Source of the DNA: Eledone cirrhosa
Taxonomy: Eukaryota
Direction of reading: 5' to 3'
DNA: 64,000 bases
NCBI GenBank assembly: GCA_964016885.1
Contig: OZ024746.1
Location: 14,818,001-14,882,000 of the forward strand
The notes beneath the pieces are model-generated. The model searched no databases. It was not told where the DNA came from and saw nothing but the letters and a program-made list of their open reading frames with translations. Shown in pieces: positions 4,195 to 51,327 of the stretch. The first letter of the stretch is position 1. The number at the start of each line of letters is the position of its first letter. The translations under genes were made by a program, and so were the position numbers.

Positions 4195-7010
4195 ATCATC
4201 ATCGTTTAACGTCCATATTCCACGCTTGCATGGGTTTGGACGGGAGTTTTCCCACTTGAGGCAAGAGTGGTTGTCTTGCTCGTGTAGGACTGTCTGGCGG
4301 GTTTTCTACGGCTGGATGCCCTTCCTAACACCAACCACATTTACAGTGTGGAACTGGGAGGTTTTTGGGTTTGGACGGGAGTTTTCCCACTTGACGCAAG
4401 AGTGGTTGTCTTGCTCGTATAGGACTGTCTGGCGGGTTTTCTACGGCTGGATGCCCTTCCTAACACCAACCACATTTACAGTGTGGAACTGGGAGGTTTT
4501 TACCGTGTTGCCTACACGGCCACATTACAGCGTGGACTGTGTGTTTTTTGTCGTGACACCTACACGATCTCATTTGTTTCGGCCTGGATGTTGTGGCACC
4601 AACATAACTTTACATTGAAGGGGCGGTGTGGATGGGGTGGGGGGGGGGTGTATTTTGTTAGAGATGCCTACTGACTGAAGTAGGTTTTACTTTGTATTTA
4701 GGTAAGGCGGGTCTTCTCTATTACTGAGTACCGCCAAAGATCTCGGTCCAGTGACATTGTCTTGGAGAGGTGTAAGTGTGTGAGGTCGGAATTTATCAGG
4801 TCGTCCCAGGTTTTTCTGGGTCTGCCTACTCCGTAGCTACCGTCTATCTTTATTGCCCTGCACTTTTTTATACAGCTGTCGTCTTTCATGCGCATCACGG
4901 GATCATACCAATGTAGCCTTCTCTCGAGTAAACAACATCTGATCCCTCTTATTTCTAATTTTTCCCTTAGTTCGTTTATGATTTGCCGTTCACGTATATT
5001 ACTATTACAAATCCAGCGGAGCATGCAAGCTTCGTTCCTCTCTAGTCTGCGTATATCCTCTGCACACAATGCCCATGTCTCACTGCCATGCAACATTGTT
5101 GTTCGTATGCAGGCATCATACAACCTGCCTTTCATTTTTAGGGAGAACCCTTTAGCGGCTAATAGTGGTATAAGCTCTCTGAACTTTTTCCATCCAGTTC
5201 TGACTCTAGCTACTGTACTTTCAGAGCACCCTCCCCCACTGCTGATTTTGTCACCCAGGTAACGGAAGCTGTCCACTATTTCTATAGAACCCTCTGCGCA
5301 ATTGAAAGAGCTAGTATTTTGTGGGCACTTGCTGCTACTAATTGCACCAGAGCACCGGTCACATGTAAAATCTATGTTCTTAGTTAGCTTACCTGTGATC
5401 CCACTAAATCTTTTATGCACCCATACTTTGCATTTGGGACATAAAATGGAGTTTCTACCTACGCCTTTCCTACACACTGAGCATGGCCATTTCCCGGAAG
5501 GGACCGGCGCCTTATTTTCTTTCCTACAAACTAGAACTTTAGTCTTAGCCAGGTTAATTTTAAGGCCTTTTGATTCTAGGTCGTGCTTCCATGTTTGGAA
5601 TTTCTTCTCTAGCTCGGCCATTGATTCAGCTATGAGCGTTAGATCATCTGCGTATAGGAGTTCCCATGGGCAGCCAGTCTTGAACTCCACTGTTATAGCC
5701 TGAAGGGCAATAATAAATAGTAGGGGGCTAAGAATGAACACCAACTTTTACGCTAAACTCTTCACTCTATTCGTTGTTAATTCTAACCTTGCTGACTGTT
5801 TCTTTATACATGGCTTGTATAGCTCTCACAAGCCATTCGTCAACACCTAGTTTTCTAAGAGCCCACCAGATAATGGAACGGGGGACTCTGTCGAAGGCTT
5901 TCTCCAAGTCGACAAAAGCTAAGTATAGGGGTTTACTTTTAGCTAGGTACTTCTCCTGTAGTTGTCGTACAATGAAAAGAGCGTCTGGTACTTTTGCCTG
6001 ACACAAACCCGAACTGCATTTCATCTAGATCAATTCTCTCTCTGATTAGTTGCGCTATTACTTTTTCCGTGACCTTCATGACCTGGTCGATTAATTTAAT
6101 GCCACTATAGTTACTCCTATCTAGGGCGTCTCCTTTACCCTTGTAAAAGTTAACGATGATGCTGCTAAGCCAGTCCTTCGGAACAACCCCATTCTGTATG
6201 ACTTGGTTTACTATCCGGGTGACCATGGTTTGTCCCACCGTTCCAGAGGCTTTCAGCATCTCAGCAACTATTTCCGAAGGCCCAGCCGCCTTACCCGTCT
6301 TCATATCTTTGATTGTCTTACTTATTATACTACCTTCGACTAACACTGCTGGTCCCTCTATTGGGTCGATGTGGGGGAGACTGTCTTTCTCCCATTTATT
6401 CTCCTCATTTAGTAGCCTTTCGTAGTGACACTTCCAAGCTACCTTCTTATCAGCGTCAGTGATGGCAAGTACACGATCATCATTAAGTACACACTTCTCC
6501 CCAACAATATCACGGTTTTCCTTGACACATTGCCTAGCAATCCTTAACACCTCACGTTTTTGGTCCTCGCGTTGTAGAACATGCTTGAACTTTCTTTCCT
6601 CTGCTTCCCTTCTTGCGAAGTACACTTGTCTCCTAGCTTCCCTCCTGGCCACTTGATAGTCTTCTCTACTTCCCCCATCCTGCCATACTTTCCAAGCCTG
6701 CTTTTTGGCCTTAATTGACTCCTCCACCTTACTGTTCCACCACCATATTACTCTCCTCCTGCCTACAGGCCTGCTCCAGCCACAGACTTCGTCTGCCGCC
6801 ATCAGCAGGTTTGCTTTCAGGAATTCCCACTGTTCCTCTATATTGTACGACTCTAATTGCTCTTCCTTACTGTCGAAAGCATCAAGTAATATGCTTTTAA
6901 ATTTATTTCTGGTTGTGGGGTCCTTTAGCTTCCATATTTTTCTCCTGAGGATAGTCCTCTTCTGCTGTCTAGTACGTCTCGTCTTGACTATTAGGTCGCT
7001 AATTATCAGT
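4195..7010 (-). mobile_element. 5'-truncated RTE-clade LINE, frameshifted RT ORF (7010-4698) plus 3' UTR ending in (ATG)n
   Basis: Motifs KGKGDAL...[50 protein letters not shown] 138-bp tandem duplication lies in the 3' UTR (4230-4497). Confidence 0.93.
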
Positions 7011-7759
7011 CTGTATATATATATATATATGAAAACATAACAAGTTCCTGGATGATGTTGTTTACTGACAATAGTGGTATTTCTAATTACTGTGAAGGTC
7101 TCAGATAAGCTGTTTGGGATTGACCAACAGTTTTTGGTTGATGTCAAACTTCAAAATAATATCATTGTCATTGCTTTTACACTTACTTTTCTATGCTTGC
7201 ATGGGTTGAACAGGTCTTTTTCTTTTTCGGATACTCTCAGGTCTTGAATAATTGCCCCTGCTCCCTGTTTATTAAATTTTGCTAATCTATCTCCAGCAAA
7301 ATTTTATTTTAAGTGGTAGCATTCCTGCGACAATTAATTTTCTTTAGACATTAAAAACATTATACATGCCAAAAAGTAATTACTAGAAATCCCAGATGTT
7401 ATAAAATAAATAAGATGGGTTGTGGTCTCAATATGTAAACTAAACGAATAATTCTGGTTTGAAAAAATCAACAGAGACAACCTAAAAAAATTCTGATTCC
7501 TCCCTATGCTTATCCCTCCCTCCCTCATTATTTGGGACCCGAGAGTAGTTTTTTTTGGGTTTTACTATGGCCCCATTTGGACAGTTTGTTGTGATCTGAG
7601 TGAGTTCATATTTGTAGTTCCCACTTTAGACCACTCGGGGGTCCTTGTCACACTTGAGGGAGAATTGGTGCCTATTTCTTGTAGGTTGTGTGTACACCTA
7701 GAAATTGGTTGCATTTGTTGTTCAGGTTTTATTTATTTGTGGATTTTTTTTTTTTACAG

Positions 7760-10695
7760 ATTATACCGAAGATCCCCAAAAATTTCTCTTGGGTTGTTGA
7801 TGGGTTCTTAGCAGCACTTGGGTTTCCTAATGAGTCTGCTAACATGATGTATTTAGTAAAGCATGGCATAAAATACCTCATTAGTTTAACTGCGGAACTC
7901 ACCCCTTCGTTAAAGGGATTCGAAGGTATGTGACTGAGTTTTTTAAAACTTTCCTCCCAAAATCAAAAACACCACTAAATTATATGTAATATTTTTTGAT
8001 TTGTATGGATTTTTTTTCTGACAAGGCTTTTAGTACATGATGTAATGAGTGGTTTACTATATGTAGTAATGAGGATTTAGCTCATGAGGTAATGAGTGGT
8101 TTAGTACATGTTACAATGAGGATTTAGTACAGAGGTAATGAGTGGTTAGTACCTGCTGTAATGAATGTTTAGTACATGTTGTAATGAGAGATGATAAGTA
8201 CATGTTTTAATGAGTGATTTAGTACATGTAATGAATGTTTAGTATATGTTGTAATGGGAGTTTAGTACATGTGGTATCGAGATTTTAGTACACGAGGTAA
8301 TGCATGGTTTAGTACATGTAGTGATGGCGGGGGCTTAGTACATGTGATAATGATGGTTTACTACATGTGGTAATGGGGTTTTTGTTATATGTTGATACAG
8401 ACAAGACTAAGTAGTTAATAAAAATCAATAATAGAATATAGAAAAAAAACCTAAACATTATTTTAACACTTTCATCATATTTCTAATGATGGACATTTCC
8501 TGTGATAATCAAATAATTTTGGAAATAAAGAATTTCGAGGGATTTAGTAATATAACTAACTTTCTCATTATTTATCTAGTGTTTAGAAAAAGGTTCTTAC
8601 ATAAAATTATGATGGAAGGTTTTAGATAAATATGAACACTTTAACTGTTTTGTTACCATATTTCTAATGAAAGAAACTGTCTGATTTTCAAATAATTTGG
8701 AAAATGATCAAAATTTTGGATGGATTTAACCCATTAGCATTTAAACTCGTTGTATCCTGACAGAATTCTCTCTTCTCTTTCTGTTCAAACGGCTGTTGCC
8801 GGCCTTTCATACTGATGTTAAGGTATTGTTCTCAAAATCTCATATCAAACATATGATAGTAAATATAGAGTAATGTAAATGCTAAAGGGATAATAATATG
8901 ATGGAACTTAACTTAATGAAGGTCCTTACTTAAAATTATGATGGAAGATGTTTAGATAAATATAAACTTTAACTGTTTCATTACCATATTTCTAATGAAA
9001 GACACTGCTTATGATTTTCATATAATTTTGGAAATAATGAAGAATTTGAAGGGATTTAATAACATAAGTAACATTTTCATTTGGAACCTAACTTAACAAA
9101 GTTCCTTACATAAAATTCTGATGGAAGATATTAACATAAATCTAAATACATTAAAAGAAAGTTTTATATCACAGAAACAGGTGATTTCAGGTAGTTTGGT
9201 ATTGATTGGGTTGAAGATTTTATTGAGAAAAAACTAAAGAAATGTTTTATTTAAAAAAAAAAAGTAATTATTATTTTTTTTTTTTTCTAGATAAATTAGT
9301 TTGGTCTCAGATTAAGATAAAAGATTTCTCACCACCAACTCTTCAACAAGTAGATGAATTCTTGAAAGTTGTTGAAAAAGCTCGTTCTGAAAATTCGGTA
9401 AGTAAAACATTTTTTTCCCCTAACAATTAGCAACACTAACAAATTTTAATATGAAATAGTTAGAATATGACTAGAATAAAAGTATTACTGCAACAAAAAC
9501 ACACAACATACGTTGCAATGTCATCTATTCCTTGCTGAAGTAAGGGTTAACTTTGTGGGCACATTGACAAACTTCTACATTTTGCTCCATCATCTGCAAC
9601 ACCCTTGGCTTTCATTTCATTTCCTCCATCATTTTCAATCATGTCTTCCCTATATTGTAAGAAGTGACTGAAAGGGTTGGTGTCAGGAAGGGTATCTGAC
9701 TGTAAAACATTGTCTCAAAACATCATATCCAACTCATGCCAGCATGGAACGGAGGACGTAAAAATGATCAATGATGAATCCTAGAACCAGAGGCTGTTTC
9801 AGGCAGTTTTGTGTCCTGGAACCAGGGGCTGTTCCAGATAGTTTTGTAATCTAGAACCAGGTGCTGTTCCAGGTAGTTTTGTATCTTAGAACCAGGGGCT
9901 GTTACAGGTAGTTTTGTATCCTAGAACCAGGGGCTGTTCCAGGTAGTTTTGTATCCTAGAACCAGTGACAGATTCAAGTAGTTTTGTAACAAGAAGAAAG
10001 ACAAACGTATCTCTAGTTTATTTCTGGTAGATTCTGTCTTCCTTGAAGAATATTTTAACATTTTCATTCCCTGTCCCTTGCTTTAAACTTTAGAAATATT
10101 GAAATCTTGCAATATGAATAATATTGAATTAAACTGAATTTAACTATTAATGACCTGTACCACATGAAACTACTTTAGCAAGACATTCTTTCTCAAAGAT
10201 CTGTTCTCTAGTAAAGATACTATAAACCACATTAACAAGGCATCTTTGAAAACTACAAAACAGCACTATGACTGCATCATAGTAAAAATTAAAGTTTTTA
10301 CTTCAGTTTACTGCAAATATTTACAATAATCTGTCCTCTAGTAAAGATACTATAAAAATTTGAATTAATAAACCCATTTGTTGGATATTTTCTGATTAAT
10401 TATTACAAGATGTAATAATTAAAGGAAGATAATTTCCAAATAACAATAGCTGAGATAATGAATAAAGAGGATTGCAATTAAATCTATGAATTATAACGAA
10501 CCACATGAAATCATGCATGTTTAGGTGCGTATATTTGTGTGAGGGTGTATGTATGTGTAAATATATGTCTGTGTGTGTATGTATAAATATATATGTCTGT
10601 ATGCATGTGTAGGTGACTGTTTGTGTGTATATGTATGTGTGTGTATATATGCCTATATATATGTATGCATATGTCTGTATGTGTATAAATATATC

Positions 10696-10743
<48 letters not shown>

Positions 10744-13700
10744 CGTGTATATGTCTGTATGTGTGTGTGTATATGTCTGTATGTGTGCGTGTATATGTCT
10801 GTATGTGTGCATGTATATGTCTGTATGTGTATATGTCTGCATGTATGCGTGTGTATATATATCTCTGTATGTATGTCTATGTATGTGTGTATATTTGACT
10901 ATCTTTTTGTGTATATGCCTGTATACATGTATGTATATGTATGTGTGTATATATATATATATGTGTGTGTGTGTAAGATTTTGAAAATATTTGTTACATT
11001 ATTTTAAAAAAATGAAACCTATTTCTATCTGGAAAGAATCATATGAAATATCTCTTTAGTTCAACATTGTGTGTGTGTTGTTATTTGTTGGTGTGTGTTG
11101 GGATGGTGGTGTTTATATATGTGAATGTGTGTGCTTGCAGTTTTTGTCGGTGTAGGTATGTTTATGAATGTGTGTGTGAGTGTGTGTTTACAAACGTGTA
11201 TGTGCCATTACTTGGTGTGTGCATGTGTTTGTGAATGTGTATGCGTGTGTGTTATATCGTCAATAAATTGAAAATGAACAAAAAGTAAAATTCGTGAAAT
11301 TCATATCGTGTGTGTAATGTGTGTGTGTAATGTGTGCGTGTGTGTAGCCAACAGTAACTGCACGAAGCAGTTAATGAAATGTTGTCACCCCCTCCTTCCT
11401 GTTTGTCAGCTCTGCTTCTCATGTAAAACCCTCGGTATACTGCTTAATGGTCTCTGCATAACTCCAGAAACTATATTTTTATGTATATATCATCAACATC
11501 ATCATTATCATCACTGTTTAACGTCTTATTTTCTATGCTTACATGGGTCAAACAGGTTGTCCACTCTATGAGGCAAGTCTGGTTATTTGACCGCACCATA
11601 CTTTGCTCAAACAGAACTGTATTTTGGCTGCGGCTTTTTACAACTGGATGCCCTTCTTAACACCAACCATGTTGACTGTCGAAGTGGGTGGTCCCATTAT
11701 GAGAGGAGGTCTGACCAATTGGCTGCGCTGTACCCTGCTCATAAGCAGATCTGTATTAGGGAGCTGGGTTGGCTTTAAGGTCTTTCATTTCCAAGCTGTG
11801 CTTCCATGTCTGAAATTTCTTCTCTAATTCTGTCATAGATTCAGCTATGAGGATCAGGTCGTCGGTGTATAGGAGATCCCATGGGCAACCAGTCTTAAAT
11901 TCCTCTGTCATAGCCTGTAGGACAATATTGAATAGAAGGGACTCGGAATGGAGCCCTGGTGGACCCCCCCCCCCACTTACACAATGAATTTCTCACTATA
12001 CTCATTGTTAATTTTGACTTTGACGGCTTGTACTGCATTCATGAGCCACTCATCTACCCCTAGTTTTCTGAGGGCTAACCAGATTATCAAACGAGGGACT
12101 CTATCAAAACATTTCTCTAGGTCCATGAATGCTAAGTAGAGCAGCTTGCTTTTAGCCAAGTACTTCCCCTGCATTTCATTCACAAGGAAGAGGGCCTCAG
12201 TCGTGCTTTTCCCCCGGCATAAATCTAAACTGTTTCTCAACTAGGTGTATACAATCTCTAATTAGTTGTGTGATGTCTCTTTCTGTAACTCTGATGACCT
12301 GGTCAATCAGTTTGATGCCCCTGTAGTTATTTCTCTCTTGGGCATCTCCTTTTCCCTTGACAATGATGTGGTTACGCAGGTCATTGAGAATGACGCCGTT
12401 CTGTATATATATATATTCTATATTACTTGGGCTTACGACATGTGGTTAGGGTGTGCCCTACCATCCCAGATGCTTTCAACATCTCAGCAACTATTCTCGA
12501 TGGTCCGGCTGCTTTTCCTGCCTTCATTTTCTTAATTGCCTTATTTACTCCGCTGCTGCTTATTCGTACAGTTTGACCTTCTGTTGGGTACGTTTGGGGC
12601 AGGCTGTTTTCTTCCCATGCATTTTCTTCATTCATCAGACTTTCATAATGGCCTTTTCATGCAGCTTTCTTTTCAGCGTCGGTGAGGGTATGTGTGCTAT
12701 TGTTGTCAAAGAGGCACTTCTCCCTGATAACATCACAGTTTTCCATGACACATTGCTTTGCAATCCTGAACACCTCATGCTTTTGGTCCTCACATTGTAA
12801 ACATGCTTAAACTTTGTATTTTCTGCTTCTCTTCTTGCCAAGTATACTTGCCACCTAGCCTCTCCCCTAGCTTCTTCGTAAGGTACCTGCTACCTCCATT
12901 TTTCCATGCCTATCTTTTGACTTTAATTGTCACATCCACCTTACAATTCCACCACTAAGTGATTCTACTTCTCCCTGGAGCCTTGCTCTATCCTCAGATC
13001 TCATTTGTTGCTTTCAGCAGGTTATCTCTCAGGGACCCCCCTCCCCACTGCTCCTCTATATTGTATGTCTCTATTTCCTCTTCTTTACTGTCAAAAGTGT
13101 CAAGCAAGATTCTCCTAAATTTGTTACGAGCTGAGGGCCCCTTCAGCTTCCATATCCTTTTCCTCTAAGTTGCCCTCTGTCTCCAGGTCTGTCTAGTTCT
13201 AACTCTGAAGATGCTGGGAGGTGCATTCCTCATCCGGGAGGCTTTTTGTGTTTACAACTGTTGCTCTATATTGTCTCTCTGTCAATCTATAGTTATCTAT
13301 TTATGTATATTTCCCAATAGAAGATAGATGGGTAGAACATAGCTATCATATTGTAGTGGATAGTTTGATAACAAAGAAAATCTGGAAGGAAATTATTGTA
13401 ACATATTGAAATGAATGTGAAATGAGATGAAATGTGGTTGATTGAAAGCAATGACTGGGCAGGCAAGAGGAAGAAGGTCAAGGAAAACTTGAGGATTCAA
13501 ACATCTTTACATAGAATGTTGTAATCAACAAATTATTCGATCAAATATTCTTTTCTATAAACCTTGTCATTTTTTATAGGTACTCTGCTAGTATATATCA
13601 TCATCATCAACATCATCATTTTATGTCTGCTCTTCCCTGCTTGCAAAGGTGGGACGGGTCTTATTCAGCACAGCATCTCTCCACTCGTCACGGTCCTTCG

Positions 13701-15804
13701 TCATCTCCACTGTGAGCTTCAGTGATCTGAGGTCTGTTCTCACCACCTCCGCCCATGTTTTTCGTGGTCTACCTCTACCACGTCTTCCTTCAACTGGCAT
13801 TTCCTGGCACTTCTTTACCCATCGGTCATCCTCCATGCGCATCACATGTCCATACCACCTCAGTCTCCTCTCCCGTACACTACATTCTATCTCTCTCAAC
13901 ACATTCATGCTGAGTCGTTCATGCACATTGACATTGCACATCCAATGGAGCATGCTTGCCTCATATTCTCCAGCCGTCGCATATCCTCTGCAGTTGCTGC
14001 CCATGTCTCACTACCATGCAACATCGCGCTCCTCACACAGGCATCATATAACCGGCCTTTCGTACGCAGGGAGAAACTCTTCTTCGTCAGCAGAGGAAAC
14101 AACTCCCTAAACATCTTCCAACCCGTCCTTATTCTAGATACTATGGCCTCGGAACACCCCCCTCCCATGCTAATCTGATCTCCTAAGTACCGGAAGCTAT
14201 CCACCACTTCTATAGCACCCGCCTGCATTTGAAAAATGTGTCTATCAATGTGACTTCTACTGTCTAATTTCCCTGTACATCTACTGCATACATATTTCTC
14301 CCTACCTGTTAGTTTGCTTGCTATCCCGCTACATCTCTTGTGTACCCAGGATCTGATTGTGTGCATTTTATAGAATTTATGCCAGTTCCTTTTCTGCATA
14401 TCGAACATGGCCATTTCCCTGACGGAATCAGTTTTGTCCTCTTTTCTACTCATCAACACTTTTGTCTTAGCTAGGTTCACTCTCAGTCCTCTTGCTTCCA
14501 ACTGCTGTTTCCATAGCCAGAATTTATTCTCTAGCTCCTCTACTGATTCTGCTATAAGAACCAGATCGTCAGCATAGAGAAGTTCCCATGGACAGCCAGT
14601 CTTAAACTCCTCTGTTATACCTTGGAGGACTATAATGAACAAGAGCGGGCTGAGGACCGAACCTTGCACTCCTACTTGTATCTGGAATTCCTCACTAAAC
14701 TCCATTCCTACCCTGACTTTACTGACAGTACCTCTGTACAAAGTTTGCACAAGCCATTCCTCAACACCTAGTTTCCTTAGGGACCACCAGATGACAGATC
14801 GGGGTACCCTATCAAAAGCCTTCTCTAGGTCAACAAAGGCTAAGTATAGTGGCTTATTTTTCTCTAAGAACCTCTCTTGCAATTGTCTCACCAAGAAGAG
14901 GGCATCTGTTGTACTCTTGCCAGGCACAAAACCAAACTACATCTCATCTAGTTTGACCCTTTCTCTAATTAGTTGTGCTAATATCCTTTCTGCCACTTTC
15001 ATAACCTGATCCATCAGTTTTATACCCCTATAATTGCTCCTCTCCAGAGCATCCCCTTTACCTTTGTAGCAATTTATGAGAATACTGCTGCACCAGTCTT
15101 TGGGTATGACACCACCATATATAGCCTGATTGATGATGCGTGCAACCAGTTTAGTGCCTACGTCCCCTGATGCCTTCAGCATCTCGGCAACTATTCCCGA
15201 TGGTCCAGCAGCCTTACCATTTTTAATTTCCTTAATCGCCTCTTGGACCCTATATTCGTCAATCTCAATAGCTGGTCCCTCTGTCGGATCTACTGAGGGT
15301 AATTTCTCTCTCTCCCATTCGTTCTCCACATTCATCAGTCTCTCATAATGATATTTCCAGGCCTCCTTTTTCTGATCATTCGTGACACTAAGTACACCGG
15401 CATCGTTCCGGACACATTTATCTCCAACAACATCCTGATTTGCATTGACACACTGCCTTGCAATGTGGAACACCGCACGCCTCTGATCTTCCCGTCACAG
15501 AACATTGGCAAACCTCCTACTCTCAGCCTCCCTGCGTGCTAAGTACACCTGACGTCTAGCTTCTCTCTTAGCGGCTGTATATTCTTCCCTACTCCTACCC
15601 TTTTTCGAAGCCTTCCATGCTAGTCTTTTGTCTCTAATAGCCTTATCTACTGTGCTGTTCCACCACCAGGTCACTCTCTGTCTGGTTGGAGCTCTGCTCC
15701 AGCCGCAAGTTTCATCAGTAGCCTGCAGTAAGTTGTCACGTAAGAAATTCCAGTTATTATATATATATATATATATAATATATATAATTATATATATATA
15801 TATA

Positions 15805-15836
<32 letters not shown>

Positions 15837-15852
15837 ATTATATAATTCCAGT

Positions 15853-15883
<31 letters not shown>

Positions 15884-15999
15884 ATAGTAATAATAATAAA
15901 TTTGAAGACTAAAATCCAAAGAGGGCTTGATAAGATTCAGAAGATCCTGTTAAGGGTGAAAGCAGCGATTCTTTGCTTAAACTTTAATCTGTTATTTTA

Positions 16000-16047
<48 letters not shown>

Positions 16048-16097
16048 TTGTGTAGTGTGTGTGTGTATGTATGCGTGTGTGTGTATGTTTGTATGTA

Positions 16098-16130
<33 letters not shown>

Positions 16131-17821
16131 TGTTCCACCACCACTAGAAATTGTTGTCATGTCAGTACTGAAGTTTCCATTCTGCACTATGATGGGGTGG
16201 GGTGGGGGGAGATAGGAAGGGTGATAAATATGATACGGGTGTGGTGCGAGAGAGGGAAAGGGTGTTAGTTATAACTGGTGGGAAAGACACTGCCTATGAT
16301 TTTGAAGTAATTTATAAAATAATCAAGAATTTAGAGGAATATATAGCTTTCTAATAATTAAGTTGATGTTTGGAGCATAACTTGGAAGTTCTTACATAAT
16401 ATTATGATAGATTTTAGATAAATATAAACACTTATAATAAACAGTTATTGAGCAAAACACTTCATTTCATGTTGCTACAATATACTCAGCTGAAAATGAG
16501 TTCAACAATAGCTAGGCGTTTAACCCTGTAATGGACTGGTGTTTTGTCCATAGGGAGGTCTTGTACACTCAGTCACTTAATGCCATGGAAACCGGGATAA
16601 ACACTGGCCGGATGAGTCTCTGGGCTTGAGACAGACTTTAGACTTTTTAGTGATGGATTGACAGAATTAGTAGAGCATCAGATAAAACACCATTTCAGTA
16701 TTTGTTCTGGCTCTATACATATTCTGAGTTCAAATCCCGCTGAAGTCAGTTTTACTTTCCATTGATAAAATAAAGTAGCAGTCATGTACTGCAGTTGATT
16801 TAATCAACTCTGCCCTTTCCCTCAAAATTTGGCATCTCTTGGCCATGTGCCAAAATCAGAAATCAATATAATTTTTATAATCAATATACAGTGTTTAATC
16901 TCCATTGCTATAACATTCTTCTGCCAGGAGTTGCGATCGGTAAATAGTATCAGCAATAGAGACACCAATGGAAATATTGTTTCCTTGGTCCAATTTCACA
17001 AGATCCACCCCACTCGGTAAGTGAATGAGGTCTGGGATTTTGTTCATCTTTTCCATTCCATTTTCACACGTAACCTTCTAGAATATTCCGTATTCTAAAA
17101 AGTCTCAAACTGCAATACTTTTTCTATTTATAACTTTTATGTTTTTTATTTTATTTTTTTGTAAAGCATTTTTTTTGTCTTGAAATATTCCAAGATAACA
17201 GAATAAAATTATTATTGTTCCTAAGTGTATGTAATAACTTTCTAGATAAACCCTTTAAAGAATGTTGTAGCCAAAATAGGGTGTCCAAACCCCCACCCAC
17301 CCGCCCATCCCATCAAAAACTGTAATAAATGTTTAGTTAATGTCTAGTAATTCTATTTGAACTCCTTTGTTGTTGTTAATATTTGTAATTGTTGCAAGGA
17401 ATGATGCTATATATCTTCATTGCTGTGTTGTGTATGTCGTGGTACACACCAAACTCTCGCCCTTCATCTGGTCTTACCCAGACATTTCTTAACTTGTAGG
17501 CTGTAGCTGTGCATTGCCTTATGGGAAGAGGTCGGACAGGCTGTATGCTGGCTTGCTATTTTGTGAAGGAATGGGAACTGCCTGCCGAAGACGCACTCCG
17601 CTACGTGAGGGAATTGAGGCCCGGTTCCATTCAGACTAGAGTACAAGCTGATGTGGTACGGAAATTTGAAGAAAATTTCAAAGGAGCTCGCGGTATAACA
17701 TAAAACTATGTATATATTAGATGTTAGGATTTTTCACTGATTTTTTCAAAAAAGCCCATGGGATAAACATAACGCTGTGTGCTGTTAGATGCTAGGACAC
17801 TCACACACATATGTGTATATG

Positions 17822-17904
<83 letters not shown>

Positions 17905-18367
17905 ATATATGTATATATATATATTTTTTTTTTTTACTGATTTTTCATTTTAAAAAATGAGCGAGAGAGAGAGCAAAAAATGAAAATGAGTTTTGAATAA
18001 AGATTGACCAACTTTGCCATGTAAGGCTTGACAACATATTCTGCATGCTAAGCTTGAAATTCTTTTTTTTAAAAGTCAACCCATGTTTTCCAAAAGAAAT
18101 AATAATAAAATAATACAAGACGATCTCATGTATTGATGCTCATTGGAGCTAAGTGCTTAAATAATAATAACAACAATAATAACAACAATAAAAGCCAGAA
18201 GAAAAAATATATAAAAATCTATCTAAATAAATGAAGCACTTTGATAAATATAAATCAATCTATTTTTATTTTTATTGACAAAAAAAAATGTTTGAGATGA
18301 TTTTTTTAAATTTTTTTTTTTTTTTTTTCTGATCTGTATCTATTGAATTATTTTACTTCCAGCATTC

Positions 18368-18399
<32 letters not shown>

Positions 18400-21300
18400 A
18401 TTTCTTGAGTAATATGTGTGTGGGTGGAGGGCATGTGTGCATATGCAGGATATTTGTTTCTGTTTTGAAGTTATAATTGCATGCATATATATATATGCAT
18501 ATGTAGAAATATATCTGTATGAGATGTGAATGTATGTACAAAGTATGTATATATATATATGTGTGTGTGTGTGTGTATGAGATGTGTATGTATGTATGAA
18601 GTGTGTATGTATATATACATATACATACACACACATACATATATATGTATGTATATGTGTATGAATATGTCTGTATAGAAGTGTATACATTTGTATATGT
18701 ATGTATATTCAACAGTAGATAAATTATTGTTAGGTGCAACATTAAGGCTGTGTGAATGTCAGTTAACATAAAGTTAAAATATCATCTTGCCAAAAATAAA
18801 ATTAAATTAAAAATAAACCCTGATAAAGAAATCGCTAGAAATCTAATTGTTTCTTCCTGATGTCAACATTTGAAATAGCGAAGAGAATGAAAGAAATGGG
18901 AAATGTTGAAGTAGTGATGATTGGATGAATGTAGAGAACTTGTGTAGTTCAATGATGAAGGGTCTTCTTTATATTGGTCTGAGTCATTGCTCTCTATATC
19001 ATCTTATGACCATATGATCTGAGACAATGCTCTCTAAATCATCTTATGACCCTAAATGTTACCTCATGTTGGCTCTATTCCAATTATAACTTTGTTTATT
19101 AACTACGGAAATATCTTAATATCAGAAACCTAATGAATCTAGTAAAGATTTTTAAAATATTTTTTATTTCTGAAAGAGGAATTATTTTATAAAGCTTATT
19201 GAAAAAAAAAATACTAAATAGCATTCTAAAATTTATTTTGTCAGGCTTTAAAAAAAATCTAACTTGATATTTGCTAAATGGTAAATTCTTTGGAAGTTTT
19301 GATTAATGCTGAAAGTTGTTTTATTTGAACTATTTTAACCATTTTGATACTGACTGGCTCACACTCACCCCTGGTTCTATGATACAAAGCTCCTGGTTTT
19401 AAAGTGTTTATACCTCCATCATAATTTTATGTAAGACATTTTTTGTTAGTATACGTTCCAAAACCTGTTTAATAAGGGAGAAGTTATGTTTATGATTTTC
19501 AAATCATTATTTAAATAATAAAGAATTTGAAATGATTTAACAATATAACTGAATTTTTCATTTAGTTGATGTTTGGAACATCTTTTTTTCACACTTATTC
19601 CTGAGAGGGTCGAACAGACCTTCCGGAGGGTCCCATCAGAAGCAATCATCTTCAAATGAGATTATTGATATTGATCAACTATTTTACTTGTGGTCTACTT
19701 CTGGGTTTCCCGATGGTTAACTTTGCCCCTAAAATATGTTCAGTGATTCTTTCCTCTGACATTTTACCCAATTGTCCTTTGTATCGCTTAAACTGGAGCA
19801 ACTCCCTGGTTGGAACATAACTTAAATTTTTTTTACATAAAATCCTGATAGAAAATCCATAGATAAACAGATCTACTTTAACATAAACAACTTTGTATTA
19901 TTGAACTGGGGGTAGTTTCTGGTAGTTTCATGTCAAAAGGGCTAAATGTTAACTGGTAAAATGATTTATGGGCTTCATTTTATAATTGTTATTTCTGTAA
20001 TAAATTTTAAAGTTGCTACTGTTTTGGGGATGTTGGCTTCCTGTAATTTGTTTCTTTAAAAAAAAAACACTCATGCTGAAAGAGAGAGAGAGATGAAAAA
20101 ATAATCACAAGTCTGAAATGAAACTTATTTAAAACTATAAATGACTCCACCACCTCTGAATAAGAGTTCTTCATGTTTGAAATATGAGGAAACCAATTAT
20201 TGTACTCTTTGTTGAACGCATACATAAGTATAAAGACACAGACAAACGTATAGAGACACATGCACACACAAATGTATAGAGACAAACATACATACAGAGT
20301 AACAAGCAATCATTTATCTCACACATATATATCCTCCTCTCTCTTTATCTGTGTGTGTATGTATGTGATATTATAAACACCACTAAGAGATCAAAAGAGA
20401 TATGCACACACTCTCATGTCTCCCCTCTTTCACTTTCTCTCTTTCTTATGTGTGTGTGTATGTGTACATGTTTGTGAATGTGTGTGTGTGTATGTGTGTG
20501 TAATATTATAAACATCCTTAGAAGACCATCTGATTGAAATGATATAGCTGATATCCTAGTGAAGACCTAAAAATATTCATACATAATGTATAAATCATTG
20601 TCACTCTTTTATTCACAACAAATCGTAACAACTGACTTCAAATATATATAAATATTCCCAATAAAGAAATTCCAATAATTTTTTAAATAAATTTAATTGT
20701 ACAAGTTTAGTAAATCAAAATAATATATCCAATAGCAATTATTGAGCTTGGTAAATGTCCAAAGAGAGATAGAGAACGGTGTACACAGAAATAGAGTTTC
20801 TATGATAGACAAAATTCCTTCAATGTGGTGCTCCAGTATGGCTGCAGTGTAATGAATGAAAAGTTATAGAATAAATTAATGTTAATAATTCTTGTCAAGA
20901 AGTGCAAGGGAGACAAGACGAAAATCTAAATTAATAAAAAAAAAAATGAAATGGTGTCATACAGTAAAGTAGTTGTCATCTGGTAAGTATAGGGACTACA
21001 TCAGATATGCTTCAGTCTTGTTAATATCTCATCAGTGAAGTGAAGCAGTGTCTTCTTATTTGTGCTTACCAGATTGTGAGAATGATTATGAGAATAAATG
21101 TTTTTGATTAGATGGTTTATTACCACAACACAGGGAAAATTTCCTTGGGATGCCTTCTGCATATTGGACATACAGTAAAGTGGAGATTTATAATTACTCT
21201 GGTGAGCCTAAAACATGTGTGGTTAGGTGGACTTTATTACTATCAAAGCAGTTAACAACTTTCCAAATTTCTCTCTCTCTCTCTGTACACACACACACAC

Positions 21301-21513
21301 ACACACACACACACTGTATATAGTCATGTGTAAATTCTCCCTCCCCCATTTTTACATACATTCTTGGCTCTGTACTTCACTTTCTTATAAACCTCTACAG
21401 ATGCAGTAAATAAGTCACATGCTCGTTTTTACACTGTTCTGTCTTTTTCTTCTTTGATAAAGGAAAATGGTGTGACTTATACATGAGTATATACAGTATC
21501 TCTAGCCCCTTCT

Positions 21514-21564
<51 letters not shown>

Positions 21565-21896
21565 AAAATATACATGTGCCTCTCTTTCTCTCCCTCTCTC
21601 TACATATATATATATATATATATATATAATCAAATTTTAACATCAGCAGAGAGTGCACGTTAAATGATAATGATGCTATATACATATATATATATATATA
21701 TGTATGTATATATGTGCTTTTTCTTTATTACACCATGGTTTTGCTGATTGGAGCAACACAATCACAGCCCCAGCTACCAATTAAGAAACACCATATAACA
21801 CAAATGTGTGTATATATATATATGTATATGTATGTATATATATATCCATCTTGCTTTCTTTATTAATTGAATACATACAACACAGATATATACTCT

Positions 21897-21985
<89 letters not shown>

Positions 21986-23475
21986 TCACACAGACAGATA
22001 TACTCTCTCACACACACACACACTCTGTATAAATGGGCAAGACAGTGGTGTGGTTGCTCTATAGATTTTTGGTAGTTGTATCCATTTTATTTTTCTAAAC
22101 ATTTTTTCCTTATTAAACTCTAAAGAAATGTCAATTATTTATTATCAATAAAAATTAATAAATTAAACAATTTCCTATGTTCTTTGTCAAATCCATTTTA
22201 CTGTTGGTGATATATATTTACGTTTATGTATTTATTATGTAAGATTCTTGATGTGAAATTGTGTTTTTTATTGGCAATACTGGCGACATGACCGTCCCTA
22301 AATATAACAATAAAGTTGTATATTTATATATATATATGTTATATCATCAACATCTGCGTTCTTACAGCCACTTTTTCATGCTAGTATGTATTGACTTTTT
22401 TGAAGCAATGTTTTACAGCCAGATGCTCTTCCTAATACTAGTCCTTTTAGTCACTTCTTACTACATGCAAGGATATGGTGTACCTATTCTAAACCAGATA
22501 CATACTGTTTAGAATGTTATTTATACACACACATATATCGACAGTCGATCAACAAGGTCCCAGACCGAGGAAACAATGTTTCTATTGGTTTTTCCAATTG
22601 CTAATACTACCTACTGGCTGCAAACCCAGGCAGAAGGAACAGTGTGAAATAAAGTGTATTTCTCAAGGACATAGCACATCGGGAATCAAACTCACAACCT
22701 CACAATTGCAAATCCAATCCTCTAACCACTCAGCCACGTGCCTTCACGCACGCGTGCATGTGTTTTGAACAATGGAAATAAAACAAAAGGCATATATTGA
22801 TGCTTAATCAGTTCATTCTTTTACGGTCATTTCAGAAGGTTGATTGATCATAATAAATTGATATAGTGACTAATCGATAGTGGTTATGCCACAACATATT
22901 ACTAGTCTCAATATTCCAGATCCATCTCACCATCTTCCTCAGAAATAACACATACACACACACACACATACATATATACATATATACATGGATATTTATA
23001 TATATATATATATATATATCATCATCATCATTTTATGTCGCTTTTCCCTGCTTGCAAGGGTGGGACGGGTCCTATTCAGCACAGCATCTCTCCACTTGTC
23101 ATGGTCCTTCGTCATCACCTCCATGAGCTTCAGCAATCTGAAGTCTGCTCTCACTACCTCCGCCCATGTTTTTCGTGGTCTTCCTCTACTGCGTCTTCCT
23201 TCTACTGGGATTTCTTTACCCAACGGTCATCCTCCATGCGCATCACATGTCCATACCCCATACCATCTCAGTCTTCTCTCCCACACACCACAACTTATCC
23301 CTCTTATACACAGTTTCTCTCTCAAGTCATCTATGCTTGGTCGTTCACGCACATTGACATTGCACATCCAATGGAGCATGCTTGCTTCATTTCTCTCCAG
23401 CCGTTGCATATCCTCTGTAGTTGCTGCCCATGTTTCACTACCATACAGCATCACGCATAGGCATCATATAACCGG

Positions 23476-23511
<36 letters not shown>

Positions 23512-26500
23512 CCAGCCTACTCTGTATAGTAGTTGTACTGGTGCCATGCAAAATGCACCCAGTCTACTCTGTAAGGTGTATGGTATCGAAGGTGTTAAGC
23601 AGGTCAATGGATTAAGTCTACCACTCAAGTTCTACCAGGAGTTGTGACCAGTAGATAGTATCAGCAATGGAAAGACCAATGGAAACATTGTTTCCATGGT
23701 CTGATTTGATGAGTTCCACCCAAGTGGGCCATAACTGAATTTGCAATAAAATATCTTTCTCGCAACATGTTTGATAACCATATATCTGTGTTACCTTTAT
23801 GGTACAATCAACAACAACAATTATTTCTCACATAGGCACAAGGCCAAAAATTTTGCAGGGGTGTACTTTGACCCCACTACTTGACTGGTACTTTATTTCA
23901 CCGGACCTAGAAAGACAAAAGGCAAAGTTGAGCTCAGAATATAGAAAGTCATAAATAAACACAGCGAAGCATTATGTCTGACACTCTACAGATAGCATCA
24001 ACCCACCACCCTTTGGCCTAATAATAATGGTTTCTGATTTAGGAACAAGGCTGATAAAGTAAAGTACCAATTTTTGGGGGACGGGAAAAAATGATTAAAT
24101 CAACCCTGGTACTTTACTTTATCAACCCTGTAAGGATGAAAGGCTAAGCTAACCTCAGCAGGATTTAAACTCAGAACGTAAAGGGCCGTAACTTTATGCT
24201 ACATCATGTCCAACACTCTACCGATTCTGCCAGTAATAATATTTAGTACTAATGGACAATGACAATTATTAAGAAAGTAAAATGTTGATTGAATCAAACA
24301 CCAGCAGGTTACTGGTACTGGTTGTGTCACCTGAAAGACGACTAGGGAATGTCTATAGTGATTTGACTTGTTAAAAGAAAGAAAACTTTAGATAATGTAG
24401 TCCTAGATACACAATGCCTGAATAAAAGATGGGATAGTCATTGTTGGCACACATTTGATCATAGGTCTGCTACATCAGAACTGACATGATGTTAAATAAT
24501 AACTAAAGACATGTTAAATAATGAACAATGGGATGGTCACAGCTGGAATGTCTTTGATCATAAATCTGCCCAGGTAGTGCTGAACTGAGGCTTAACAATA
24601 AGGAAAGATGCATTAGATAATGTAGTCCTAGATGGATCATGTCTGAATAAAAGACAACTAGAACATCTTTGATCATAGGTCTGCTGTATCCTGACTGACC
24701 TGGGGCTAAACAACAAAAACACAACAATAATGATTTCTAATTTAGGCACAAGGCCAAAAATTTGTGAGGAGGGGGAAAGTCTATTATATTGACCCCCAGG
24801 AAGGATGAAATGCGAGAGTTGAATTCAGAATGTAAAGAACAAGAACAAATACTTCAAACATTTTGTCCGACACTTTAATGACTCAGCCAATCAATTGTCC
24901 TCATATACTCTATAATACATCTTACATTGGTTTCTATAAATAATCGTTCCAGTTGTTTGGTAAGTGTAACTACCGGATAGTCATTGGATTATAACAGAAG
25001 TTGGTAAGAATTCTATAGACACTAGGACCCTTAAACCTCCTGATACCAATCTACCTGGAACTGGCCCTGGTTTTATGGTACAAAACTGTTTTTATTTTAA
25101 TGGGTTTCAATAAATCAACCAAGATATTTATGACTGGTGCAGCCAGCCGTTGGGATCCCACTCTAGATGTTTGACTATGTGTCCATCCAGCCATTTCAAT
25201 GTGCCTTAGAAATACTTGGTGTTGCCCATTATCCCATAACTGGTACAGCCATTTGTCGGGGTCCCACTCTTAATGTTTGACTGTGTCCATCATGGCATTT
25301 TAATGGGCCATAAAAATACTTAGCACTGTCCATTTCCTCTTGGTGTGGCTGAAAAATGTCCCAGAGCCAAAAGTAAGAGTCAGGTGAGAACCAGTGTAGT
25401 TAGCCATCCTTAATGGTGCCACTGCCAGACACAAGGTATTCCCAGTTTTGAAGTAATGTTTCTTGAAATCCTGGTTAACAGTATATCCATTATTGAAACA
25501 ACCTTTCTTCAAATCACTTCAATATTTTCAAAGGATATATTATATATATATATTTTTTTAAACCCTTCATTCTCTTTCTGATATATTTGAATCAGCTATT
25601 TACAAGGTAAGCTTTATTTTACATTCATATTTCAAACTACCATTTATTATTTATAACCAAAGAAGAGCTGTGTTACAGATATATCCATATATATCTTTTA
25701 TTCCATCTTTCTTTTTCTTCTTTTGTATTTTTTCAGTTAAAATATTAAATATTTCAGGCATCATCATCGTCATTATCATCATCATCTTCATCATCTTCAT
25801 CATTTTACATCTATTTCCTTGTTTGCATGAATTAGACATGTCACTCTCTGAGGCTAGACATGTCAGATGACTGTCTCACTCATACCTTCCATTTTGGCAA
25901 TGGTTTCTATAGTTGGATGTCATTTCTAACACCAACCACTTTACAGCATGTACTGGGAGTTTTTTTTTTATCATGGCACCACCACTTGATAGGGTGGACT
26001 GGAGGATCTTTATTGTGGCACTAGCACTACCAGTTTACAGAGTGTACAGGGTGTATTTTATTGTGGGACCAGGACTAACACTTGACAGTGTGGTCTGGGT
26101 GTATTTTATTGTGGAACCAGCACGGCCACCTGACAGTGTGGTCTGGGTGTATTTTATTGTGGGACCAGCATGGCCACTTGACAGTGTGGTCTGGGTGTAT
26201 TTTATTGTGGGACCAGGACTATCACTTTACTGTGTGGACTGATACATGTTGCTTGCCAAAGGAAGTGACCTGCAATGGAGAAGGAAGGGCAGCGAGGTGG
26301 GAGGGATGCAGCTTTAAAGAGTTTGTTATTCTACTGATTGTTTTTCTGAGTAAATATTCTATGAAATATCTGGAAATATTGTGTTATACAGGGTTGCCTA
26401 TGGACCATTTGGTAATGAGAGATCTCCACCTAGCAGGGTGACAAGTCATATCACTAGACTGTTTCCAGGCCAGGCCCATGTCTGCCAGGTTTGTCTACAA

Positions 26501-26992
26501 AATCATTAAGAGTTAACTCTTAATGATTTTGTAGAAAATATCTAAAAATATGTTTATAGTATCATTACTAGTGGACAGATTGTTGTGAAAACTTGCAGTA
26601 TTAGAATAAATACTTTACTGATAATGAAAGGGTTAAAGATATAGGTAGTGTCTTTCATTAGAAATATTGTAATGAAAGTGTTAAAGACATTAGAAATATA
26701 GTTATGAATGGGTTAAAGGTTAACCAAATATTTTCATAGTTAATCAGTTAATAATTTGCTATATTTGTCTATTTAACAGGCTGTTGCAATCCATTGTGCT
26801 CACGGCAAGGGGAGGACAGGTACTATGATTGCTTGTTATCTGATTAAGTATCACAATCAGACAGCCAGCGAAGCCTTGAAGAACATCCGGGAGTCAAGAC
26901 CTGGATCAGTGGAGACTTTTCAACAGGAAGAACTTATCTATATGTTTGAGGATCAATATAATCAAATGAAATCACAAAAAGAAATTGAGTAA
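7760..26992 (+). CDS. DUSP23: Dual specificity protein phosphatase 23-like gene (start exon not located); shared exons 7760-7925 and 9291-9397, alternative last exons 17500-17703 or 26780-26992
   Basis: Exon 7760-7925 reads [23 protein letters not shown]... (cf. DUSP23 PPNFSWV). Exon 9291-9397 has the general-acid loop [16 protein letters not shown]. Both last exons carry HCxxGxGRTG..ACY and R..RPGS(I/V). All junctions are GT-AG with matching phases (1, then 0). Confidence 0.88.
8030..8385. repeat. Degenerate minisatellite of about 23-24 bp (TTTAGTACATGTGGTAATGAG)
   Basis: Tandem degenerate units in a DUSP23 intron. Confidence 0.8.
9778..9990. repeat. 35-bp minisatellite (CCTAGAACCAGGGGCTGTTCCAGGTAGTTTTGTAT), about 6 copies
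   Basis: Tandem units seen directly. Confidence 0.9.
11790..13270 (-). mobile_element. Degenerate RTE-clade LINE fragment
   Basis: [14 protein letters not shown] and [17 protein letters not shown] in broken frames. Confidence 0.88.
13600..15752 (-). mobile_element. 5'-truncated RTE-clade LINE with short 3' UTR and (ATG)n tail
   Basis: [54 protein letters not shown]; several frameshifts. Confidence 0.93.
17500..17703 (+). CDS. DUSP23: DUSP23-like alternative terminal exon A (catalytic P-loop HCLMGRGR)
   Basis: Acceptor cttgtag|GCT, phase 0. Reads [73 protein letters not shown] hexamers lie downstream. Confidence 0.85.
   Translation, partial: AVAVHCLMGRGRTGCMLACYFVKEWELPAEDALRYVRELRPGSIQTRVQADVVRKFEENFKGARGIT
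19335..19946. mobile_element. AT-rich MITE-like family with TTAACC(C/A)TTT...AAAGGG(T/C)TAA termini
   Basis: Imperfect terminal inverted repeats. The internal motifs CTTACATAAAATTATGATGGAAG and TTTCTAATGAAAGACAC recur at 8460-9200, 30992-31400, 46920-47770 and 58300-58700. piggyBac-like TTAA ends are inferred. Confidence 0.5.
23018..23478 (-). mobile_element. RTE LINE 3' fragment
   Basis: YGSETW...RRLRWYG...[12 protein letters not shown]; similar to the 3' end of the 13.6-kb copy; (ATG)n tail. Confidence 0.88.
26040..26240. repeat. 45-bp tandem repeat, about 4 copies
   Basis: GACAGTGTGGTCTGGGTGTATTTTATTGTGG repeated. Confidence 0.85.
26780..26992 (+). CDS. DUSP23: DUSP23-like alternative terminal exon B (catalytic P-loop HCAHGKGR)
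   Basis: Acceptor ttaacag|GCT, phase 0. Reads [70 protein letters not shown]. Not in the supplied ORF track. Confidence 0.85.
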   Translation, partial: AVAIHCAHGKGRTGTMIACYLIKYHNQTASEALKNIRESRPGSVETFQQEELIYMFEDQYNQMKSQKEIE

Positions 26993-27249
26993 CCTTTTAT
27001 TACAATTCACACCAGGTTTTATTTTTTTCAATTAACGAGAAATCATTAACAAATTTATTTAATGAGAAATCTTTTTAAAAATTTATTTAATTACTATCTT
27101 CAACAAAATTATTAGTAATGTCCCAGAAATGTTTTAATAGCTTCTTTCTACATTTAGTTTCATAAGAAGGCAGGCTTTGTGTATTTTATTTTTTCAACTT
27201 TCTTTTATTTATTTATTTATTTGTTATTATTATTATTATTGTTTAGAGC

Positions 27250-49200: not shown

Positions 49201-51327
49201 GAAGGGTCTTTTAGTTGTGTCAAGACACAACAACCTCTTGTGCTGGTGATCTACCTGATAAAAGCACCCAGTATATATGACGCAAAGTAGTTGGTGATAG
49301 GAAGGACATCTAGCCGTAGAAAGCTTGCCAAAGAAAGGGTTGGGGGGACCTTTCAGTTTATGTTAATGCCACAACAACCTCTCGTGCTGGTGATCTACAC
49401 AGTATATGTTGTAAAGTGGTAGGTGATAGGAAGGACATCTAGCCATAGAAAGCTTGCCAAACAAGGGGTTGAGTGGACCTTTCAATTTATGTGAGATGCA
49501 AACCCCCTTGGCCTATCTGTGAGATCAGTAGCACCCCTGCTTCAGTACTGACTTGGTCTATGTAGATCTGGCCAACCTTTGCTAGTAGGGAAGCGGACAT
49601 TAAATGATGACGATGATGATGATACAATAAGCTTCTGCAGTTTCCATCTACCAAATTCCATTAAAAGAGCATTGGTCAACCTGGAGCTATAGAAGACACT
49701 TGCCTAAGGTGCCACACAGTGGCACAGTTGTGTATTGACAATTTGGCGATGGTATACAGCAGTGACTGGTATGACTAACAATGAAATGAAAATGAATGAA
49801 CTACAGATAAAATTAAACCGAACTGATGTATGTAAATGTGGTTGGTGTTAGGAAGGGCATCCAGTTGTAGAAAACCTGCCAGATAATCCTATACGAGCGA
49901 GACACGGTCATCCGACCAATCTTGCCTCAAATGGGACAATTCCCGTCTAACCCATGCTAGCGTGGAAGATAGAGGTTAAACGATGATGATATTGATATAT
50001 ATATGTGTGTGTGTGTGTGTACATACATACATGTATGTTTATGTAACGTAACTTAACTGTTCGACAAAAAGAGATCGATACAATAAATACCAGGCTTGAA
50101 ATAAAAATGACCACTGTGGTCGGCTAATGATCGCCTGAATCTATTTCAGTGTAATAACTGAAATCAGTAGACGAAAGAAATGATGTTAATAATGGTATTC
50201 TCATGTACGAAGATGCTATACAATAGCTTATAAAATAGGGCGAAGACCCATAAAAAACGGGAAAAGAAGTTGCCATTAGCCACTATGTGGAATTGAAACC
50301 CATACTCCTCAACGTATAGTGGAAGTCTGAGAGATCGACTACGTATACAGAAAGAAATGATTTCTAATTTAGACGTAAGACCAGCAATTTGGAAGCAGGG
50401 GGTAAATCGGTTATATCAACTCAAGTACTTCACTGGTATTTTGTTTCATCGACCCCAGAAGGAGAAAAAGCAAAGTTGACCTCGGCGGGATTTGAAATCA
50501 GGACGTAGAAAGTCGTAATTAAATATCGCAAAGCATGTTGTCTGATGCTCTACCAATGCACCGTCACCGCCCTTGGTAGAAGAAATAATGACAAGATGAT
50601 AAATAACTGTCTTTAACTCACCTATGGGTATAAGAATACCAGTTCCTGAACCTGGTTGTTGAAGAGGAAGATGTTTGTCGTAATTTATTTTGATCTCCGT
50701 AGAAATGCTGATAGAATTTCTGGCTGATTTGCCTTTGGCCGAGTTTACCTGTATTTCTTGTCGTATGACATTATAGGCTGATTTCGTGTCGTTCTTGGTT
50801 TGAATTCCTGATGTAACATCGATATTTAAAGGACCACCAGACTCCAATTGTTCAGAAAAGTTTTGACTCCTTAATGCTGCAGGACTAGACATCATCTCTT
50901 CGGAACTGCCGTTGATAACTCTTTCGTTGTAGTTTAACAATGTTTGTAATTTTCGACAACAGATCGAATTCAAACAAGTCCGCTGGTCGACAATTATGTG
51001 TTCGATAAGTTCCAGAATTCTTAGATTAATTCTTCGACAGTTAAGTTTGGTTCTCCGCGCATCAATAATTTCCAGATCAGGTAAATAACTTATATTAAAG
51101 TCTAAGTGTTTCAAGGGTGTCTCTTTGATGGACAATGTCATGTAATCCGGGTGGATTGTACGAAACTGTAAAGCTTGTAACGACTTCTTATCACAGTCAA
51201 TAAGTTTCTCCTGTTCTTTCCAACTGCAGACATCTTCAACAAATTGTGTTGTTCCCTGGGCTAAAAGACTATGGAATAATGTCGTTAAGAAGAAGAATAA
51301 ATACAGAGGAAAATATTCATTAGCCAT
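46210..51327 (-). CDS. Uncharacterised single-pass type I membrane protein, 296 aa; exons 51327-50622 and 46394-46210
   Basis: Signal-peptide-like N-terminus (MANEYFPLYLFFFLTTLFHSLLAQG), Cys-containing ectodomain and Ser/Thr-rich stalk. Donor ATAG|gtgagt (phase 1) joins acceptor tatttcag|AA ATG GAC in frame. Exon 2 encodes the TM segment IVYSILGLLVLITLVSVSFSLYVLC, then the basic stop-transfer SRKKQR and a short tail. AATAAA (minus strand) at 46141-46146. Confidence 0.72.
48478..48622. repeat. 31-bp tandem repeat (GGAATGGCAGCGGTGTTTCTGAAAGGGAGAC)
   Basis: 4-5 tandem units. Confidence 0.9.
48620..49010 (+). mobile_element. Decayed L1/Tx1-type LINE fragment (zinc-knuckle region)
   Basis: QKSLAW*CY*GALLI*DKLYSHG and CPRCAWSDETVPHTL (zf-RVT-like), with stop codons. 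Confidence 0.6.

Follow-up and report, generated by a model that had tools for sequence, protein, structure and literature searches.

The gene described here is related to the human phosphatase DUSP23 (also VHZ; structures 4ERC and 2IMG) and occupies part of a window of 64,000 nucleotides (nt) from the octopod Eledone cirrhosa (contig OZ024746.1:14,818,001-14,882,000, in a genome of 3.0 Gb). In the human enzyme the primary general acid/base is Glu134 and not Asp65, as stated in two papers that both cite Kuznetsov & Hengge 2013 (PMC5965843, PMC13577060). The first of these further reports that the Glu134 position overlays the Q-loop residue Gln446 of YopH, and that in the archaeal Tk-PTP the mutant E132Q kept activity, possibly by way of an artificial Q-loop, whereas activity was lost in E132L and, synergistically, in D63N/E132Q; for E132Q, kcat/KM rose at 20 C and fell to half at 60 C (PMC5965843). 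Another paper treats the Glu as a backup in archaeal enzymes (PMC12848742). In the octopod gene, shared exons are joined to either of two tandem duplicated last exons, A and B, and the choice between them probably switches the acid/base chemistry of the enzyme.

Tandem duplicated exons that substitute for one another are known from human genes. In a survey of such events, 77 of 236 swap C-terminal regions; the swapped regions tend to avoid ligand-binding residues, 80.6% of the overlapped ones are kept, and losses of binding residues are known in ACTN1/4 and ACAN (PMC9741552). The octopod gene resembles these events in using homologous exons as alternatives and in swapping the C-terminus, but the exon that it swaps carries the nucleophile, the Arg and the Q-loop, and its two versions are not alike in a catalytic acid; given the conservation of binding residues in the survey, a changed catalytic acid is a minority case. 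Human DUSP13 (DUSP13A/B) is likewise one locus with two homologous dual-specificity phosphatases (PMC9741552, PMC13147768). However, the event there covers the whole protein, whereas the octopod gene shares half a domain and swaps half. Tk-PTP E132Q and ShufPTP concern the same Glu position, the engineered E132Q corresponding to the natural exon A change, but E132Q is a laboratory mutant of a single-form enzyme, and Asp63 is dominant or co-equal there.

Two homologous last exons behind one set of shared exons

The two shared coding exons of the window, when joined, give an open frame of 91 amino acids that ends in phase 0. They are followed by two last exons (Table 1), both preceded by AG, both beginning with GCTGT and both in phase 0; exon A codes for 67 amino acids and exon B for 70, and each ends in TAA. 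Exons A and B share 28 of 67 amino acids and 105 of 204 nt, match each other with a tblastn E of 2e-17 in the window, and differ over 60 codons at 26 first, 15 second and 42 third positions; each alone scores above the Pfam DSPc cut-off. The shared exons were not found a second time in the window or in the whole genome, where each had one match, and genome-wide matches to the last exons comprised A, B and one distant locus only. The duplicated pair therefore has these structural attributes of tandem duplicated alternative last exons: homology, tandem placement, the same acceptor phase, their own stops and a single upstream exon set. An earlier sequence-only reading of the window had described exons A and B as intact, homologous and in phase 0, and had seen no second set of upstream exons; its coordinates and motifs were all reproduced, and the single-copy status of the shared exons holds for the whole genome.

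The distant locus (L003, G000:C3:234544849-234547989) is the only other genomic match to exon B and carries what we read, from its translated sequence, as exons of a CDC14-like phosphatase.

Residue differences at the active site

Residues were numbered by alignment to human DUSP23 (PDB 4ERC). The Asp of the shared exon is Asp65, and residues 6, 45 and 49 of the last exons are Cys95, Glu134 and Gln138; residue 45, which is Gln in exon A and Glu in exon B, thus aligns on Glu134 and lies 39 residues past the catalytic Cys. Both exons encode an HCX5R(T) P-loop, and both isoforms have equivalents of Asp65 (in the IPD loop), Cys95, Arg101 and Gln138. The second acid, Glu134, is present in isoform B and absent from isoform A, which makes A a derived variant rather than a dual-acid member of the family. 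The sequence-only reading had held that the isoforms share the same general-acid loop. This stands for the Asp65 loop, but the residue that is primary in the human enzyme lies in the swapped exon, and from the alignment it is most likely that the main acid is swapped, not shared, between the isoforms.

Conservation was assessed in 61 of 102 fetched proteins, 57 rows of the alignment being non-cephalopod; redundant cluster members, 6 abalone multi-domain proteins, one fungal protein of 780 amino acids and some unnamed hits were excluded. The homologues are mostly unnamed microbial proteins, many of them retrieved with the exon B query. Thirteen columns of the last exon are invariant in the 57 non-cephalopod rows. 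Exon B matches all 13 and exon A 12, the exception being the Gln at position 45, and the Glu134 position is accordingly Glu in 57 of 57. When all 111 P-loops in the 102 proteins are counted, this position is Glu in 94, Gln in 10, Gly or Trp in 6, and absent in 1. All 10 Gln belong to cephalopod exon A, cuttlefish included, and all 6 Gly or Trp fall in one degenerate abalone domain. Among the matches to A-type queries, 17 of 18 non-cephalopod proteins carry Glu here. Exon A also lacks Glu139 (Glu in 46 of 57 homologues), and a loop adjoining the active site changes from VETFQQEEL, with three acids, in the B form to IQTRVQADV, with one acid and one Arg, in the A form.

The Haliotis DUSP23 proteins (P0001, P0002, P0010-P0013) are tandem multi-domain molecules with four repeats by eye, three of which have an HCX5R loop. 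One loop-bearing domain has Gly or Trp in place of the Glu134 equivalent, and the repeats represent a separate duplication in another mollusc lineage.

Family and fold

Each isoform has a single small dual-specificity phosphatase domain, whose closest solved match in sequence and fold is human DUSP23 (E 1e-33 for A and 2e-35 for B), with a weaker match to CDC14B (E 2e-12 and 4e-16). AlphaFold models of the Octopus isoforms P0017 (A) and P0026 (B) have domain confidence scores (predicted local distance difference test) of 90-98 and superpose on 4ERC with a template modeling (TM) score of 0.95 and a root-mean-square deviation of 1.1-1.2 A; the last exon of P0017 is identical to exon A, and that of P0026 agrees with exon B in 56 of its first 57 residues. 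The models thus predict the same DUSP23 fold for both isoforms, which speaks to compatibility of fold and not to chemistry. Searches of the ESM Atlas returned the DUSP23 family only. The assignment to DUSP23 relies on these best matches and on a 58-column tree. Apart from the Gln at position 134 of isoform A, the octopod gene differs from human DUSP23 in its duplicated last exon and in an N-terminal extension of about 90 amino acids modeled with low confidence.

Other phosphatase families were considered and rejected. A PTEN-like lipid phosphatase matched at E ~1e-6, far more weakly than DUSP23; a PTPMT1-like fold reached a TM score of 0.82 against 0.95 for DUSP23; and both sequence and fold are closer to DUSP23 than to a DUSP11-like RNA phosphatase.

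Use of both exons

Contigs from 4 of 24 listed public runs were aligned to exons A and B. In all four, the exon A contig starts at 17499 and carries, as a loose end, the 3' terminus of the shared exon. In two runs from different studies and organisms (X8 and X15), the same shared-exon end is attached to exon B at 26779. The overhang in X19 (the own species, by a word share of 1.00), X8 and X15 consists of 25 nt of shared exon and 5 nt common to A and B, and these 30 nt are the size expected at a graph fork of 31-letter words. In X14, which has no B contig, the exon A contig continues unbroken for 434 nt upstream across the junction. The pattern of contigs and overhangs indicates that the A and B junctions coexist in two relatives, and that the own species shows the A junction, with the B junction suggested by the fork. 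Of the two junctions proposed by the sequence-only reading, 9397-17500 was therefore found in all four runs, own species included, and 9397-26780 in the two relatives, with no such contig in the own-species run. Automatic annotations agree with the contigs. Octopus sinensis has models for B (X1/X3; XP_029643816.1) and A (X2; XP_029643817.1), as does O. bimaculoides (X1, XP_014768663.1, B; X2, XP_014768664.1, A), and single-isoform models exist for Argonauta hians (B), O. vulgaris and Sepia pharaonis (A). Proteins of the shared exons and exon A are 95-100% identical to Octopus. The evidence confirms that both exons are real and are spliced to a common upstream half, and bears out the view of one gene with two alternative last exons, each of them used and conserved.

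In some models (P0014, P0077; O. sinensis X4/O. vulgaris and O. bimaculoides X3) the shared exon is followed by a short last exon that is not catalytic and that differs between species. No convincing counterpart of these third exons (ending MFLDL or RLLEMK...) was found in 9398-27000.

Selection and history

Compared with contigs of relatives, exon A shows 0 nonsynonymous and 4-5 synonymous differences (Fisher p 0.003), its indels being confined to the untranslated region (UTR). Exon B shows 1 nonsynonymous and 12-13 synonymous changes (Fisher p 2e-8) among the listed differences, which cover 13-14 of 23 differing letters, the remainder lying near the alignment ends; over the first 57 residues its protein has one difference from Octopus and Argonauta. 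Judged from these substitutions, purifying selection acts on exon A and on exon B, and neither exon evolves neutrally. Exon A is identical to Octopus at 67 of 67 residues and to cuttlefish at 62 of 67, which suggests that A arose before those lineages split and that the duplication is probably older than the octopod-cuttlefish divergence. The P-loop motif of exon B is exactly that of limpet and scallop DUSP23, and B consequently appears to be of the ancestral type. In the tree (58 columns, 22 animal rows, long branches flagged) the A group has support of 100/98 and the B group of 98/95, with stem lengths of 0.79 and 0.35, respectively.

Synonymous change against the same relative was lower in exon A than in exon B (4 of 48 versus 12 of 36 sites, p 0.005, or p 0.03 at the least favourable bound), a contrast between the two exons and not against a genome-wide baseline. 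A splicing element or editing could possibly constrain these sites in exon A. Local RNA structure does not explain the low divergence (z +0.72 for A, -0.48 for B). A search for adenosine-to-inosine editing found no difference in the own-species contig of exon A (contigs drop rare variants), and the term DUSP23 is absent from one supplementary file of PMC8382921, whose full site tables may lie elsewhere.

Gene structure and neighboring features

Three more exons of the DUSP23 gene lie 3.6-15.4 kb upstream of the window (Table 1). The first AATAAA downstream of exon A, a candidate poly(A) signal, is at 17996.

Table 1. Coordinates of the DUSP23 gene features; positions are those of the window except in the last row.
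Feature	Position	Strand	Details
Shared coding exon, start of DUSP23 domain	7760..7925	+	Phase-0 acceptor, phase-1 donor; single copy in genome
Shared coding exon with Asp65-equivalent loop DFSPPT, Asp codon 9323-9325	9291..9397	+	Phase-0 donor, GT at 9398; single copy in genome
Alternative last exon A, derived, common to octopods and cuttlefish	17500..17703	+	Cys 17515-17517, Arg 17533-17535, Gln138 equivalent 17644-17646
CAG (Gln) at human Glu134 position, exon A	17632..17634	+	Alignment to human DUSP23 and homologues
Exon A 3' UTR, first part	17704..17797	+	Alignment to three relatives still possible
Alternative last exon B, ancestral-type P-loop	26780..26992	+	Cys 26795-26797, Arg 26813-26815, Gln138 equivalent 26924-26926
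GAG (Glu) at human Glu134 position, exon B	26912..26914	+	Alignment to human DUSP23 and homologues
Upstream exons of the DUSP23 gene, outside the window	L006:4555-4702, L005:2579-2732, L005:6285-6425		

The first coding exon can be read in two frames, set by a 154-nt cassette whose alternative use is putative. When the cassette is skipped, the first ATG begins an uninterrupted frame (253 amino acids in the A form, 256 in the B form), and the N-terminus, beginning MSYDG, is identical to O. vulgaris at 48 of 48 residues and to a cuttlefish-like protein at 40 of 48. When it is included, the MSYDG frame stops at codon 59 and the +1 frame opens and acquires a segment that is strongly hydrophobic and resembles a signal peptide (Kyte-Doolittle 11-mer 3.2, against 2.8-3.2 in Octopus, Argonauta and Sepia). 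Hydrophobic (2.3-2.7) and plain N-termini also alternate among scallop DUSP23 isoforms.

The introns contain minus-strand fragments of non-long-terminal-repeat retrotransposon reverse transcriptase (Pfam RVT_1; 4698-7150 and 13905-15494), and a further candidate stretch at about 22.9-23.6 kb looks similar. An open frame of 294 amino acids on the minus strand (50446-51330) has a hydrophobic start and a leucine-rich-looking stretch, and matched no Pfam family.

Discussion

We propose that isoform B would retain the ancestral pair of Asp65 and Glu134 as a dual-acid DUSP23, and that isoform A, with Gln at 134, is likely an Asp-only enzyme that would rely on Asp65 alone. Gln134 of isoform A may act like the water-positioning Q-loop glutamine of classical protein tyrosine phosphatases. 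Exon choice would be a competition of the proximal acceptor and poly(A) site with the distal acceptor, and both isoforms would be active, with different pH profiles, rate-limiting steps and substrate preferences. A wider scheme, in which a regulated octopod splice switch alters the catalytic mechanism and the frame-shifting upstream cassette adds the signal-peptide-like segment, would give up to four forms (cytosolic or membrane/secretory, with either chemistry); this is tentative, and we hold it to be rather doubtful.

Two real last exons might instead be catalytically near-equivalent, the Glu-to-Gln change being tolerated and the pair kept for its 3' UTRs, C-terminal tails or partner surfaces. 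The small effect of E132Q in Tk-PTP would agree with this, as would the conserved 3' UTR of exon A and its few synonymous changes, which point to constraint at the RNA level; furthermore, 39 of 67 residues differ, many of them on helices distant from the active site. We nevertheless consider near-equivalence unlikely, since Glu is kept in every one of the aligned homologues, which range from microbes to fish, and octopods and cuttlefish are both fixed for the Gln. Less likely still is that isoform A is a weakened enzyme that traps substrates, acts as a scaffold or competes with isoform B. It lacks the residue to which the role of primary general acid is ascribed in human DUSP23, the same Glu is lost in an abalone tandem domain, and a phosphatase-independent action of DUSP23 on MKK4/MKK6 is mentioned in a review (PMC13147768). 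However, the Cys, Arg, Asp65 and Gln138 equivalents and all but one of the invariant columns are kept, the replacement is the residue that preserved Tk-PTP activity, and the cuttlefish cluster is A-type in 7 of 7, so that A may be the main form there.

The sequence-only reading had located the functional difference in the P-loop, whose residues would switch substrate class (protein, lipid or RNA phosphate), with an extra Cys in exon A offering redox control. The residues after the catalytic Cys do differ between the exons (LM versus AH), and the change of Thr104 to Cys in exon A, which cuttlefish share, falls in a column with Thr in 54 of 57 homologues. But the three P-loop positions that distinguish the exons vary across the family (commonest residue in 20, 42 and 20 of 57), G-[R/K]-G-R is kept in both exons with a basic residue at +4, Lingula DUSP23 combines HCMLGRGR with Glu134, and RTGC recurs in 3 unrelated non-cephalopod proteins among those fetched. 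The claim about substrate class is not supported by this comparison in the form given, and we regard a switch residing in the P-loop, with redox control by the extra Cys, as improbable. That one of the exons is an orphan, a pseudo-exon or an assembly artefact, or belongs to a second gene, is hardly credible and largely refuted: the lack of a B contig in the own-species run would fit, but the shared exons are single-copy, both junctions occur within the same runs of two studies, and exon B has its single change in the first 57 residues against at least 12 synonymous changes.

A switch in acid/base chemistry remains our preferred reading, and several points weigh against it. The role of Glu134 is carried over by analogy from the human enzyme and is known via citing papers, and in the archaeal Tk-PTP and ShufPTP Asp is dominant or co-equal and the E-to-Q effect modest, so that the kinetic difference may be small. 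None of the 24 runs is on record as RNA, contig depth cannot rank the isoforms, and 5 of the 6 junction contigs fall below the 31-letter short-side bridging rule. No exon B contig was found in X19 or X14, which is not proof of absence, and the own-species B junction is pointed to by fork size only. Finally, the tree does not resolve A and B as sisters, and searches of limited recall found no decapod exon B beside the A-type cuttlefish cluster, so that a two-way exon choice is shown for octopods only.

The architecture class of duplicated alternative last exons is already known, and so is the presence of both isoforms in automatic annotation, where the model names, some of them CDC14B or pakB, mention no catalytic difference. 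A swap of a catalytic residue is unusual within this class, and no paper on this gene was found in the literature searched, most subscription papers and bioRxiv supplements being outside its reach. The residue changed is the very one that makes DUSP23 mechanistically odd, and the swap spans nucleophile, Arg and Q-loop. Octopods would offer a Glu134Gln enzyme that arose naturally and is under selection, its N-terminal half being identical to that of the Glu form. The pair would allow a direct test of why the second acid is retained in DUSP23-type phosphatases from microbes to humans, and it provides a clean case for asking whether splicing can select a catalytic mechanism.

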